The translations under genes and the position numbers were made by a program. This document shows, in pieces, positions 610 to 9,424 of a stretch of 9,424 nucleotides of DNA. The notes beneath the pieces were generated by a model, which was given only the letters and a program-made list of their open reading frames with translations, did not search any database and had not been told where the DNA came from. This DNA comes from a virus (Duplodnaviria > Heunggongvirae > Uroviricota > Caudoviricetes): the IMG/VR virus record IMGVR_UViG_2563366805_000008. One strand, written 5' to 3'. The number at the start of each line of letters is the position of its first letter. Positions within the stretch are counted from its first letter, which is position 1.

Positions 610-1392
610 ATGGACAATATTAATAAACACGGGCTCTCAAGAAGAATACCTGAGACAATAAAACGTCAGATAAGGCAAAGGTGCGGCTTTGGCTGTGTAA
701 TTTGTGGATTTGGATTTTATGATTATGAGCATTTTAAACCTGACTTCGTTGATGCCAAAATACATGATCCGAATGGAATGACACTTCTTTGCTCCCAATG
801 CAATCAAAAAAGAGCTCGTGGTAGACTTTCAGCACAGACAGTGGAAATAGCTGACAGAAATCCCAAGTGCTTACAGGCTGGTTTTGCAAATGAAATGTTT
901 GATTTTCATAATGAGCCTATAACAGTAAAATTTGCAGGAGTGACGTTTCATAACTGTCAAAATTTGATTGTAGTCAACGAACAACCCATTCTTTCTGTGA
1001 AACCTTCACCCATACCACATGGACCGATGCTTTTATCAGGAATTTTCTGTAATTCTATTGGTAAGGAGACTTTACTGATAGATGAAAATGAATGGAAAGC
1101 TAAATCAGACAATTGGGATGTGGAGTGTACCGGCCCGCGTATAACAATACGACGTGGGCCAGGAGAGTTTGCCCTCGTTCTAAAAATGGAACCTCCAACA
1201 GGATTGATTGTTGAGCGTCTTGATATGTTGTATGAAGGGGTCAGGATGAAAGGAGATAAAGATCTGCTGGAAGTTTCGATTAATGGAGGTCCCTTGCACA
1301 GATGGCAATCATGCTCAATGTCAAATTGCCATACAGGGCTTGCGATTCAGGGCGGTATTAGAGCTGCTAATGATCCTTTGTATTGCGCCTAA
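610..1392 (+). CDS. HNH (His-Me finger) nuclease domain protein with uncharacterised ~190-aa C-terminal domain (260 aa)
   Basis: ORF 610-1392. N-terminal ~70 aa carry an HNH zinc-finger layout: C25-x3-C29-x2-C32, Y-E-H41, D-P-N55-G, L-L-C61-x2-C64-N65. Residues ~75-260 match nothing I recognise. Visibly AT-rich with rare codons (AGA, AGG, ATA); my hand count of the first 60 nt gives about 37% G+C versus about 48% for the start of rusA. Weak Shine-Dalgarno. Confidence 0.75.
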   Translation: MDNINKHGLSRRIPETIKRQIRQRCGFGCVICGFGFYDYEHFKPDFVDAKIHDPNGMTLLCSQCNQKRARGRLSAQTVEIADRNPKCLQAGFANEMFDFHNEPITVKFAGVTFHNCQNLIVVNEQPILSVKPSPIPHGPMLLSGIFCNSIGKETLLIDENEWKAKSDNWDVECTGPRITIRRGPGEFALVLKMEPPTGLIVERLDMLYEGVRMKGDKDLLEVSINGGPLHRWQSCSMSNCHTGLAIQGGIRAANDPLYCA

Positions 1393-3647: not shown

Positions 3648-4745
3648 TTAGAACTGGTAAACCAGACCTACAGCAACGATGTCATCAGTGCTTACACCGA
3701 GTGCTTTAGTGAAGTCATTTTTGTCAAGCAGGTTGATTTTGTAATCAACGAAAGTAGACATATTTTTGTTGAAGTAATAGGTTGCACCTACATCAACATA
3801 TTTGACTAAGTCCTGATCGCCCCATACTCCAAGATCTTTACCTTTAGATTGCAGGTAAGCAACGGACGGACGCAGACCGAAATCGAACTGATATTGTGCA
3901 ACAGCTTCGAAGTTTTGGGCTTTATTAGCAACGAAGTGATCAGCAAATACAGTCATATTCTGGGTTTCAGAATAGGTAGTGGCCAGGTAAATGTTGTTAG
4001 CGTCATATTTCAGACCTGCGGCCCAAACTTCTGCATTTTTACCGGAAGCAAATACTTCAGGAAGAACTTTCCCTGCATTAACTTGAGTGTCGGTACGATC
4101 AGATTTCGCATAAGTTGCACCGATACCGAATCCTTCGTATTCATAGGTAGCAGAGAAACCGAAGCCATCACCGTTACCTTCAGTGTAGTTATCGAAATCG
4201 CTACGATCGTTTTTGCCTTGGTACTGAGCAGCAAAGTTCAGACCATCAACCAGACCAAAGAAGTCGTTGTTACGATAGGTTGCAACACCAGTGGTGCGAC
4301 CAGTCATGAACACATCTGTTTGGGTCCAGGTATCGCCACCGAATTCTGGCAGAACGTCAGTCCACGCACCGATGTCGTATGCTACACCGTAGTTACGGCC
4401 GTAATCGATTGAGCCGTAGTCACCGAATTTCAGGCCTGCAAATGCAAGACGGGTTTTGTCTTTGGAGGAACCTTGAGATTCAGCGCGGTTGCCTTTGAAT
4501 TCATATTCCCACTGACCGAAACCAGTCAGTTGATCGTTGATTTGGGTTTCACCTTTGAAGCCAAGACGGGCATAAGTAGTATCACCATCATCTGCATCAT
4601 TAGAGGAGAAGTAGTGCTTGGCATTAACTTTCCCGTACAGATCCAGCTTGTTACTGTCTTTATTATAAATTTCAGCTGCCTGAGCAGACATCGCCATCAG
4701 TACTGATGCAGCTACAGCAGAAATTGCCACTGTTAATTTTTTCAT
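3648..4745 (-). CDS. nmpC: outer-membrane porin, NmpC/OmpD/Lc family (365 aa), apparently intact
   Basis: Signal peptide [23 protein letters not shown] then AEIYNKD; general-porin motifs; C-terminal VAVGLVYQF beta-barrel signature. Uninterrupted 1098-nt ORF. RBS AAGGG upstream of ATG (plus strand 4743-4745 = CAT). Confidence 0.9.
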
Positions 4746-6830: not shown

Positions 6831-7264
6831 CTTATTATCCTGCATTGTTAAAAATGGCAGAATCCTATGTGACAACAATTAAACGATAGTTAAATGGATT
6901 GATGAAAATTAAAACTATATAGGTGTACGCTCAGACTATTGGAGGAAGTTGGGGACACTCAGAATCCTGTGGAATGAAATAAACCGGTCTATCCGTCTAT
7001 TACCCTTTTAGCTGCGCTGTATCGTCGCCGTATTCCCGCATTAACCATGACCGTAGCCCGACGGGGAATTCCTTCTGCGTGAGTGTGCGGGAATAATCAA
7101 AAACGATGCACACCGGGTTTTACTGTGCTGACAGACGCAGGGTTACCCTCATAGTCGCTTTTCCGGTGCGATGGTGGAAGAAACCGGGATGTTCATCCAT
7201 CATCACTTTGGATTGATGTATATGCTCTCTTTTCTGACGTTAGTCTCCGACGGCAGGCTTCAAT

Positions 7265-8839
7265 GAGGGGAATACCAACATCTCCGGCGTCACGGTGGTG
7301 TTCCGGGCCGGTGAGCAGGAGCAGACACCGCCGGAGGGATTTGAATCCTCCGGCTCCGAGACGGTGCTGGGTACGGAAGTGAAATACGACACGCCGATCA
7401 CCCGGACCATCACGTCGGCAAACATTGACCGACTGCGTTTTACCTTCGGCGTGCAGGCACTGGTGGAAACCACCTCAAAGGGGGACAGGAATCCGTCGGA
7501 AGTCCGCCTGCTGGTTCAGATACAGCGTAATGGTGGCTGGGTGACGGAAAAAGACATCACCATTAAGGGCAAAACCACCTCGCAGTATCTGGCCTCGGTG
7601 GTGGTGGGTAACCTGCCGCCGCGCCCGTTCAGTATACGGATGCGCAGGATGACGCCGGACAGCACCACAGACCAGCTGCAGAACAAAACGCTCTGGTCGT
7701 CATACACCGAAATCATCGATGTGAAACAGTGCTACCCGAACCAGAGCGGCACGGTGAATGGTGTCACGCCGCCAGCGGTGCAGCATCTGACCGCCGAAGT
7801 CACCGCAGACAGCGGGGAATACCAGGTGCTGGCCCGCTGGGACACGCCGAAGGTGGTGAAGGGCGTGAGCTTCCTGCTTCGCCTGACCGTGGCAGCGGAT
7901 GACGGCAGTGAGCGGCTGGTCAGCACGGCCCGGACGACGGAAACCACTTACCGCTTCACACAACTGGCTCTGGGGAACTACAGGCTGACAGTCCGGGCAG
8001 TAAATGCGTGGGGGCAGCAGGGCGATCCGGCGTCGGTATCGTTCCGGATTGCCGCACCGGCAGCGCCGTCGCGGATTGAGCTGACGCCGGGCTATTTTCA
8101 GATAACCGCCACGCCGCATCTTGCGGTTTATGATCCGACGGTACAGTTTGAGTTCTGGTTCTCGGAAAAGCGGATTGCGGATATCAGGCAGGTTGAAACC
8201 ACAGCACGCTATCTTGGCACGGCGCTGTACTGGATAGCCGCCAGTATCAATATCAGGCCGGGCCATAATTATTATTTTTACGTTCGCAGTGTGAACACCG
8301 TTGGCAAATCGGCATTCGTGGAGGCTGTTGGTCAGCCGAGTGATGACGCATCCGGCTATCTGGATTTTTTCAAAGGCGAGATAGGGAAAACCCATCTGGC
8401 TCAGGAGCTGTGGACGCAGATTGATAACGGTCAGCTTGCGCCTGACCTGGCTGAAATCAGGACATCCATTACGGATGTCAGCAATGAAATCACACAGACC
8501 GTCAATAAGAAACTGGAAGACCAGAGTGCGGCAATTCAGCAGATACAGAAGGTTCAGGTTGATACAAATAATAACCTGAACAGCATGTGGGCTGTGAAGC
8601 TGCAGCAGATGCAGGACGGACGCCTTTATATCGCGGGTATTGGTGCCGGTATTGAGAACACCCCTGACGGCATGCAGAGTCAGGTGCTGCTGGCGGCAGA
8701 CAGGATTGCGATGATTAATCCTGCGAATGGCAACATAAAGCCGATGTTTGTTGGGCAGGGCGATCAGATATTCATGAACGAAGTGTTCCTGAAACGCCTG
8801 ACGGCTCCCACCATTACCAGCGGCGGTAATCCTCCGGTA
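7265..8839 (+). pseudogene. J: remnant of host-specificity / tail-tip protein J: 5'-truncated, apparent internal in-frame deletion near 7741, 3' end replaced by fusion to tfa
   Basis: Frame opens at 7244 after TAG 7241-7243; first possible start is GTG 7295. Homology to my recollection of lambda J begins near codon 56 ([20 protein letters not shown]...), runs to ...[10 protein letters not shown], then jumps to [20 protein letters not shown] (FN3-like region) and ends at ...[16 protein letters not shown]. No J N-terminus and no receptor-binding C-terminus. Confidence 0.65.
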
Positions 8840-9424
8840 ATGGCATTCAGAATGAGTGAACAACCACGGACCATAAAAATTTATAATCTGCTGGCCGGAA
8901 CTAATGAATTTATTGGTGAAGGTGACGCATATATTCCGCCTCATACAGGTCTGCCAGCAAACAGTACCGATATTGCACCGCCAGATATTCCGGCTGGCTT
9001 TGTGGCTGTTTTCAACAGTGATGAGGCATCGTGGCATCTCGTTGAAGATCATCGGGGAAAAACCGTCTATGACGTGGCTTCCGGCGACGCGTTATTTATT
9101 TCTGAACTTGGCTCGTTACCGGAAAATGTCACCTGGTTATCGCCGGAAGGGGAATATCAGAAGTGGAACGGCACAGCCTGGGTGAAGGATACGGAAGCAG
9201 AAAAACTGTTCCGGATCCGGGAGGCGGAAGAAACAAAAAACAGCCTGATGCAGGTAGCCAGTGAGCATATAGCGCCACTTCAGGATGCTGTAGATCTGGA
9301 GATCGCAACGGAGGAAGAAACCTCATTGCTGGAAGCCTGGAAAAAATATCGGGTGTTGCTGAACCGTGTTAATACAACAACTGCACCGGATATTGAATGG
9401 CCAACAGTACCCATTATCGAATAG
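8840..9424 (+). CDS. tfa: tail fiber assembly protein Tfa (194 aa), in frame with the upstream J remnant
   Basis: [49 protein letters not shown]... through ...[11 protein letters not shown] matches remembered lambda/e14 Tfa over its full length. ATG 8840; stop TAG 9422-9424 at the window end. No good SD upstream, and a TAA at 8838-8840 in another frame suggests a relic of the former stf stop. Confidence 0.75.

Follow-up and report, generated by a model that had tools for sequence, protein, structure and literature searches.

Among described systems, the closest counterpart of the locus considered here is the lambda protein gpJ (TipJ; PDB 8IYK, 8XCG and others), together with the J protein of phage Ayreon (ATE85479.1). 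The window (by which we mean the whole stretch of 9,424 nucleotides that was analysed) encodes residues 55-214 and 609-974 of such a protein, which are 98% identical to Ayreon J and contain the FNIII-A, FNIII-1 and FNIII-2 domains whole, but it lacks residues 1-54, the hub (residues 215-608), the final third of the central fibre and the PF12421 domain. In the lambda tail-tip structures, the parts missing here build the closed tail-tip cone and bind LamB (PMC11101478), and the names FNIII-A, FNIII-1, FNIII-2, shaft and central fibre are used as in that work (PMC11101478). The remainder of the coding sequence corresponds to lambda Tfa (orf-194) and to the cryptic-prophage genes tfaD, tfaQ, tfaR and tfaE. 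Like these, it specifies 194 amino acids with a full Caudo_TAP domain, and is 94.5% identical to lambda tfa at the nucleotide level; it differs from them in having no upstream stf, no native Shine-Dalgarno (SD) sequence and no stop-start coupling, and in being fused in frame to J.

The surrounding prophage most closely resembles DLP12 of E. coli K-12 and B, as the gene order from ybcK to bor is the same and the sequence is 93-97% identical to that of BL21 DLP12. In contrast to BL21 DLP12, which lies beside cusS, this element is located at att-lambda (ybhC/ybhB-bioA), and it further differs from DLP12 in that its porin gene is intact and nohD is absent. Damaged J genes have precedents in other E. 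coli remnants (BL21 DLP12, PSJ-23, 1916D18 and TB06051), which share with the window J-hub deletions (approximately 0.8-0.9 kb in these remnants) and annotation by PGAP as pseudogenes; PSJ-23 also retains an intact tfa downstream of a ruined J and stf. Their deletions have other end-points, however, and are out of frame or frameshifted, whereas two of the window's junctions are in frame and the second of these falls at the start of tfa.

Prophage setting and reading frame

The element occupies the lambda attachment site, in the order ybhC, prophage, ybhB-bioA. One flank contains ybhC, an integrase remnant disrupted by IS3, and emrE; on the other flank, tfa is followed by a GGDEF gene on the opposite strand and then by ybhB and bioA. 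The neighbours of the fused frame (ybcK, ybcN, ninE, ybcO, rusA, ylcG, quuD, the porin gene, essD, rrrD, rzpD and bor/iss) are DLP12-like, and there are no head or tail (morphogenesis) genes in the prophage. Collinearity with BL21 DLP12 stops at position 7266 of the window, inside BL21 ylcI.

Positions 7244-9424 constitute a single open frame of 726 codons, which is closed by a stop at 9422-9424 and bounded on its 5' side by an in-frame TAG (7241-7243); we looked for an upstream ORF that feeds into it in frame, and found none. The earliest start-type codon of the chimeric frame is a GTG at 7295, which gives a product of 709 amino acids. Segments were placed by BLAST and by base-by-base alignment against phage Ayreon J, lambda J and tfa, and BL21 DLP12 (Table 1). 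By this alignment, the make-up of the 709-codon ORF is six junk codons, J(55-214), J(609-974) and Tfa(1-194). Two antisense ORFs (7700-9052 and 7240-7473) were also considered as genes and rejected; neither has a Pfam match at the curated cut-off, and both simply shadow the J frame.

Table 1. Features of the window, and J-internal deletions in other E. coli remnants (positions of the latter in J nucleotides)
Feature	Position	Strand	Remarks
ylcI 3' remnant (YlcI/YnfO family)	7193..7266	-	PGAP pseudogene 'missing N-terminus' in AW1.7; cut by deletion a
J fragment 1	7261..7741	+	J nt 162-642, residues 55-214; 98% amino acid identity to Ayreon J (157/160)
Junction a	7264..7266	+	ylcI remnant to J codon 55; microhomology 'TGA'; from three-way alignment
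709-codon ORF	7295..9424	+	Mechanical call; GenBank EOW09286.1 (709 aa, KTE100), EFI5350798.1 (686 aa)
Junction b	7740..7741	+	J nt 642 to nt 1825; microhomology 'AC'
J fragment 2	7740/7742..8839	+	J nt 1823-2922; 98% identity to Ayreon J (363/370)
Junction c	8838..8839	+	J nt 2922 to 2 nt preceding the tfa ATG; microhomology 'TA'
tfa, tail fibre assembly protein, 194 aa	8840..9424	+	WP_000885606.1, intact per PGAP; Pfam PF02413
BL21 DLP12 J deletion	J nt 803/1675		871 nt lost, out of frame
PSJ-23 J deletion (Rac-like remnant)	J nt 840/1719		878 nt lost, out of frame
1916D18 J deletion	J nt ~635-647/1464		~829 nt lost
TB06051 J deletion			Annotated as frameshifted

A preliminary description of this DNA, made by reading the sequence, had reported a continuous 2.1-kb frame of 709 codons that joins pieces of J to a full tfa, and both the ORF reading and the alignment confirm it. 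The junction positions given there (7741/7742 and 8831-8839) agree with the alignment, as does the placement of the start of the J piece at about codon 56 (residue 55 here). It had also listed the receptor-binding C-terminus of J, lom and stf as missing, which is borne out, and the J hub is absent too. Its estimate of roughly 500 codons for the missing central segment of J is replaced by the aligned value of 1182 nt (394 codons). The absence of the J N-terminus was correctly recognized, although the third junction (ylcI remnant to J, at 7264-7266) that lies behind this loss was overlooked. Lastly, it had allowed that its segment order might be mistaken; the pieces are collinear with real J, and the gaps between them are therefore true deletions.

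Junctions and domain content

Each of the three junctions is associated with a different loss. Junction a eliminated the terminase, head and tail genes, together with the start codon and the ribosome-binding site of J. Junction b corresponds to the in-frame loss of residues 215-608, which comprise the hub domains including PF13550. Relative to lambda, 3630 nt are gone at junction c; this cost J the end of its fibre and its receptor-binding domain, took out lom and stf, and deprived tfa of its native SD sequence. Junctions b and c are both frame-preserving. The former lies near domain edges (7 residues past FNIII-A and 1 residue ahead of FNIII-1), and the latter joins J exactly to the first Tfa codon; as read from the sequence, the fusion product would be a tidy chain of whole domains.

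The partners at the three junctions share only 2-3 nt, which indicates illegitimate (microhomology) recombination. The preliminary description had proposed recombination between short repeats as one possible origin of the frame, and we reject repeat-mediated deletion, since just these 2-3 nt (TGA, AC and TA) are common to the junction partners, i.e., the joining is by microhomology. Taken together, the locus displays the collinear homology blocks, abrupt junctions and microhomology of a few nucleotides that characterize a pseudogene formed by illegitimate deletion. A hairpin hotspot was considered for the J break of junction c and discarded, as native J folds no better there than shuffled sequences (z = 0.28).

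The J fragments are 97-99% identical at the nucleotide level to J of living phage. Fragment 1 holds the complete FNIII-A_GpJ insertion domain (PF24801, positions 3-125 of a 126-position profile). Fragment 2 corresponds to Ayreon residues 609-974 (lambda residues 609-945), and comprises FNIII-1 (Ig_J), FNIII-2 (Ig_J_second), the alpha-helical shaft and approximately two thirds of the central straight fibre. For the three FNIII/Ig families (PF24801, PF24421 and PF24489), the match extends along the whole profile (E-values 1e-39 to 1e-42), and PF09327 (Phage_Tail_Tip) is matched only over positions 1-100 of 139. The hub domain PF13550 (Phage-tail_3) and the receptor-binding domain PF12421 were not detected by Pfam in the window protein, and are present in both lambda and Ayreon J, the former at residues 330-498. 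Thus, of the parts that make up a functional gpJ (TipJ), the FNIII/Ig domains are found here, and the native N-terminus, the hub (HDII-HDIV), and the full fibre with its receptor-binding domain are not. Judged by this predicted domain content, the window protein cannot serve as a working J, as it would be unable to close the tail tip or to bind LamB.

The Tfa portion is complete. Positions 8838-9424 are equivalent to lambda tfa plus the 2 preceding nt, with 194 codons and a stop, and the product matches positions 1-130 of the 131-position PF02413 profile (Caudo_TAP). The 194 codons from the ATG at 8840 specify a protein identical to WP_000885606.1, which occurs on at least 1000 contigs elsewhere. 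Of the other attributes of a working tfa, its own translation signals and an adjacent stf client are both lacking; no stf homology was found in the window or downstream of it.

Translation signals and distribution

No credible SD sequence was found for in-frame starts near the 5' end of the ORF. The GTG codons at 7295, 7298 and 7364 have SD pairing energies of -1.7 to -1.8 kcal/mol, versus -9.8 kcal/mol at the native J start. At the other end, the region of the lambda tfa SD (GAGG) is deleted in the window, and a weak GGCGG stretch lies approximately 14 nt upstream of the tfa ATG (duplex energy -6.4 kcal/mol). The TAATG motif, in which the stf stop overlaps the tfa start, is retained, with its TAA out of the J frame. 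Because junction c both deleted the native tfa SD sequence and put the stf stop out of frame, the stop-start coupling is lost; the same junction created a 7-bp stem (CATTACC/GGTAATG) across the tfa ATG. A consensus scan for promoter-like and terminator-like sites gave no excess over shuffled sequence. Transcription could plausibly occur by read-through of the Q-dependent late transcript, which starts upstream of essD. With the J start and ribosome-binding site lost at junction a, and the tfa SD sequence and stf coupling lost at junction c, the ORF is probably not translated efficiently.

Over its entire length the window matches scaffold KE137155.1 of E. coli KTE100 base for base (100% identity), and it differs from the corresponding region of strain AW1.7 by four SNPs. 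Two Logan contigs are identical to the window across the ~3.3 kb that they cover. The KTE100, AW1.7 and Logan copies are therefore 0-4 SNPs apart over up to 9.4 kb, which indicates that the remnant is young. When 5,426 complete E. coli genomes were surveyed with short queries spanning each junction, AW1.7 was the only strain (represented by two assemblies) to give a match, and it did so for junctions a, b and c alike. No phage record contains the junctions, and none of 50,697 phage records covers 80% or more of the query; plasmid records and the GTDB species-representative genomes also gave no match to the junctions. In IMG/VR, junction c is absent, and the sole match to junction b is a contig (L007) from the same locus as the window. 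The preliminary description had suggested a search for the identical chimera in other genomes, and the search does find it, confined to a few near-identical strains, including KTE100 and AW1.7. This narrow and recent distribution, and the absence of the arrangement from viable phages, are as expected for a pseudogene.

At the protein level, the chimera forms a 17-member cluster, from approximately 30 contigs, in a collection of 15 billion proteins. The 709-residue member from KTE100 (EOW09286.1) is labelled "tail fiber assembly protein", and the 686-residue member (EFI5350798.1) is labelled "DUF1983 domain-containing protein". The cluster also includes several pieces cut by contig ends, a 641-residue form with an altered C-terminus and a 570-residue form; the latter two are consistent with continuing decay, and suggest further truncation. 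All of the isolate-genome copies whose 5' end is recorded lack the J N-terminus, and none keeps the native start; the copies that were read at the DNA level carry junction a. In the RefSeq (PGAP) annotation of both AW1.7 assemblies, a J-related pseudogene spans 7262-8845, and tfa is a gene of its own at 8840-9424. This type of feature is well known, and the databases already treat the locus as a pseudogene plus tfa.

P0132 and P0134, two proteins derived from metagenomes, combine junctions b and c with a complete J N-terminus. P0134 is known here as a protein. The contig of P0132 (ENA OWRJ01007271, from a human-gut assembly and referred to as L008) was located by a junction-pattern scan, and in it the gene lies downstream of L, K and I, all intact, and has the native J SD sequence. 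The coverage of L008 is 1.8x, and the contig is itself chimeric at position 4003, where the middle of tfa meets the middle of a domain in an ABC-transporter gene (42-45% GC). L008 and the window have 40 differences, which are clustered, with none over 565 nt that include junction b, and then nine in 66 nt. At many of the differing sites (e.g., 8795-8797), both alleles match the ordinary J of Ayreon, BL21 or lambda. Such a pattern would result from gene conversion, or from an assembly that switched back and forth between the remnant and a normal J. The differences amount to approximately 27 synonymous sites versus 8 changed codons, and we do not read this as a sign of purifying selection; with differences that lie in clusters, and that in many cases equal ordinary J alleles, the comparison is uninformative. 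A full-length progenitor with an intact J start is thus unproven, and, if it were real, it would show merely that deletion a was the last of the three.

Interpretation of the fused frame

We consider the locus to be a non-functional tail-tip/tail-fibre remnant of a lambdoid prophage that arose by three microhomology deletions, and assign this reading a probability of roughly 85%. In this scheme, deletion a would have spanned the DNA between a point within ylcI and J codon 55, with loss of the J start and ribosome-binding site. Deletion b would have taken the J hub (residues 215-608), and deletion c, ending 2 nt short of the tfa ATG, would have cost J its fibre end and receptor-binding domain and the prophage its lom and stf. 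By chance, on this reading, neither deletion b nor deletion c disturbed the frame, and the pieces form a single ORF of 709 codons. The deletion order, as well as the non-expression and non-function of the remnant, are what we infer from these sequence features.

The question of chance was raised by the preliminary description, which put the probability that both junctions preserve the frame at about 1 in 9. That arithmetic is right (the chance prior is 1/9), but the argument drawn from it is weak; the prior is insignificant taken alone, and each of the four other J-internal deletions is either out of frame or carries a frameshift annotation (Table 1). One in five independent J-internal deletions being in frame fits chance. 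The absence of stop codons is uninformative, given that the fragments are still 97-99% identical to living-phage genes, that the Tfa is a common allele, and that the copies are only 0-4 SNPs apart. The lack of stops reflects youth, not selection, and the in-frame state is most likely due to chance. As a separate observation, J-hub deletions, and breaks at the same few J bases, recur across independent E. coli prophages.

Among other explanations, an unlikely one is that tfa alone is live, in line with the PGAP annotation. The J pieces would then be untranslated, or an incidentally translated leader, and Tfa made from the ATG at 8840 could act as a chaperone for side tail fibres of other phages, either resident in the same cell or infecting it. 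The full-length Tfa, identical to a protein found on so many contigs, suits such a role, but a young pseudogene would be just as likely to match a common allele in this way. The PSJ-23 remnant likewise keeps an intact tfa by its ruined J and stf, whereas here the prophage has no stf partner for the protein. As for initiation, the weak GGCGG stretch could serve as a signal, but it is SD-like at a distance of some 14 nt from the ATG, the native SD sequence and the coupling of stf stop to tfa start are gone, and the new stem lies over the start codon.

The preliminary description had also entertained the retention of an expressed chimeric protein, and this does not stand up well: the J start and its SD sequence are lost, PGAP calls a pseudogene, the frame is confined to a few near-identical strains, and the shorter cluster members fit truncation. 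In its fullest form, the idea is that of a selected, expressed J-Tfa fusion, in which the N-terminal part of J, three FN3/Ig domains and the trimeric shaft would precede Tfa. It might be, for instance, a dominant-negative tail-tip subunit that poisons tail assembly in competing lambdoid phages, and the window copy would be a descendant that lost its N-terminus later on. In favour of such a fusion are the two in-frame junctions, located at or close to the edges of domains, the full N-termini of P0132 and P0134, the native SD sequence in L008, and the mostly synonymous changes between L008 and the window. However, L008 has low coverage and is provably chimeric, its clustered differences that match ordinary J alleles fit an assembly mosaic or gene conversion, the isolate-genome copies all lack the J N-terminus, no phage record has the arrangement, and we found no report of a J-Tfa fusion in the literature; overall, we regard selection for the fusion as very improbable. 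It is just as hard to credit a version in which the fusion arose while the tail genes were still present and was kept as a poison subunit that would enter the J/I/L/K initiator complex and block the tail-tip assembly of competitors, the window copy being a start-less relic. Finally, the frame could in principle belong to a viable phage that has a naturally short member of the J family, in which homology runs on without interruption and nothing has been deleted. Its open frame is all that recommends this proposal, which has next to no probability and which we take as refuted; the homology is not contiguous, since there are two J blocks with 394 residues absent between them that all of the full-length phage J proteins compared possess, the hub and receptor-binding domains are missing, and the arrangement occurs in no phage or plasmid record (0 of 50,697 phage records at the coverage given above).

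On the reading of the locus as a deletion remnant, EOW09286.1 and EFI5350798.1 are gene-caller readings of a decaying prophage rather than a new protein architecture. The locus illustrates cleanly how a series of microhomology deletions can, by chance, yield a long and domain-tidy ORF. It also shows that, when phage genes present in multiple copies are assembled from metagenomes, "ancestral" versions can seem to emerge, which are possibly mosaics. Outside of annotation its significance is slight, and what the locus represents is ordinary prophage decay.

Prophage site and neighbouring genes

The prophage seen in the window and in the E. coli AW1.7 loci L001 and L005 is DLP12-like in gene content, yet it is found at the lambda attachment site (ybhC/ybhB-bioA). 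The DLP12 prophage of BL21, in contrast, adjoins cusS. The window/AW1.7 prophage at ybhC/ybhB-bioA has an IS3-disrupted integrase, with emrE and ybcK carried along. The MASE4-GGDEF diguanylate cyclase gene, whose position is that of the lambda b region, may be prophage cargo. The nmpC-like porin gene is intact in the window, whereas the copy in BL21 DLP12 is split by IS1. The product of the 260-aa ORF has several Cys pairs close to its N-terminus, and a comparison with Pfam gave no match.

Coordinates of neighbouring features
Feature	Length	Coordinates	Strand	Location
MASE4-GGDEF diguanylate cyclase gene	443 aa	L001 10999-12330 (just past window right end)	opposite	between tfa and ybhB
nmpC-like porin gene	365 aa	window 3648-4745	-	between quuD and essD
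ORF, hypothetical protein WP_072188611.1	260 aa	window 610-1392	+	between P22AR-C-domain gene and ybcN

KTE100 and AW1.7 differ by four SNPs over 9.4 kb. Three of them (window 7075, 7169 and 7406) lie in a 332-nt stretch surrounding junction a, the boundary between the ylcI remnant and J, which is a local excess. Only one of these three falls within the J-tfa ORF, and this T-to-A change is non-synonymous.

The J/tfa junction

Two unrelated deletions have their break in J within one short stretch, nt 2921-2924 (CCGGTA|TTTT). In the window (8838-8839; junction c) the deletion joins J to the start of tfa, and in the Rac-like remnant of E. coli PSJ-23 (L012 5458-5461) J is joined, out of frame and via ‘TATT’, to the interior of stf. 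The coinciding breaks could reflect either a hotspot or coincidence; a hairpin was looked for in native J, and none of significance was found. Junction c itself produced a new 7-bp inverted repeat (CATTACC ... GGTAATG, window 8811-8843), the 3′ arm of which contains the tfa ATG. This segment folds with an energy of -8 kcal/mol (z = -2.0), as compared with -3.9 kcal/mol in the native J sequence.

Contig L008 (ENA OWRJ01007271), from a human gut metagenome, is a chimeric assembly; at position 4003, mid-tfa is fused to a truncated ABC-transporter gene (42-45% GC). Its predicted proteins, such as P0132, which combines a full J N-terminus with the J hub deletion and junction c, are therefore unreliable as natural architectures.

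Recurrent deletions in the J hub

Internal deletions of the J hub are seen repeatedly in independent prophages, namely those of the window (7741), E. coli 1916D18 (L014 4049-4061) and BL21 (L002 7945-7949). The left end of the 1916D18 deletion lies at about J nt 635-647, beside J nt 642, where the deletion in the window has its left end, and the upstream tail genes of this prophage (tape measure, M-like gene, L, K and I) still have annotations as intact genes. The J hub may often be lost early in prophage decay, although the search was biased toward deletions nested around junction b, the hub deletion of the window.
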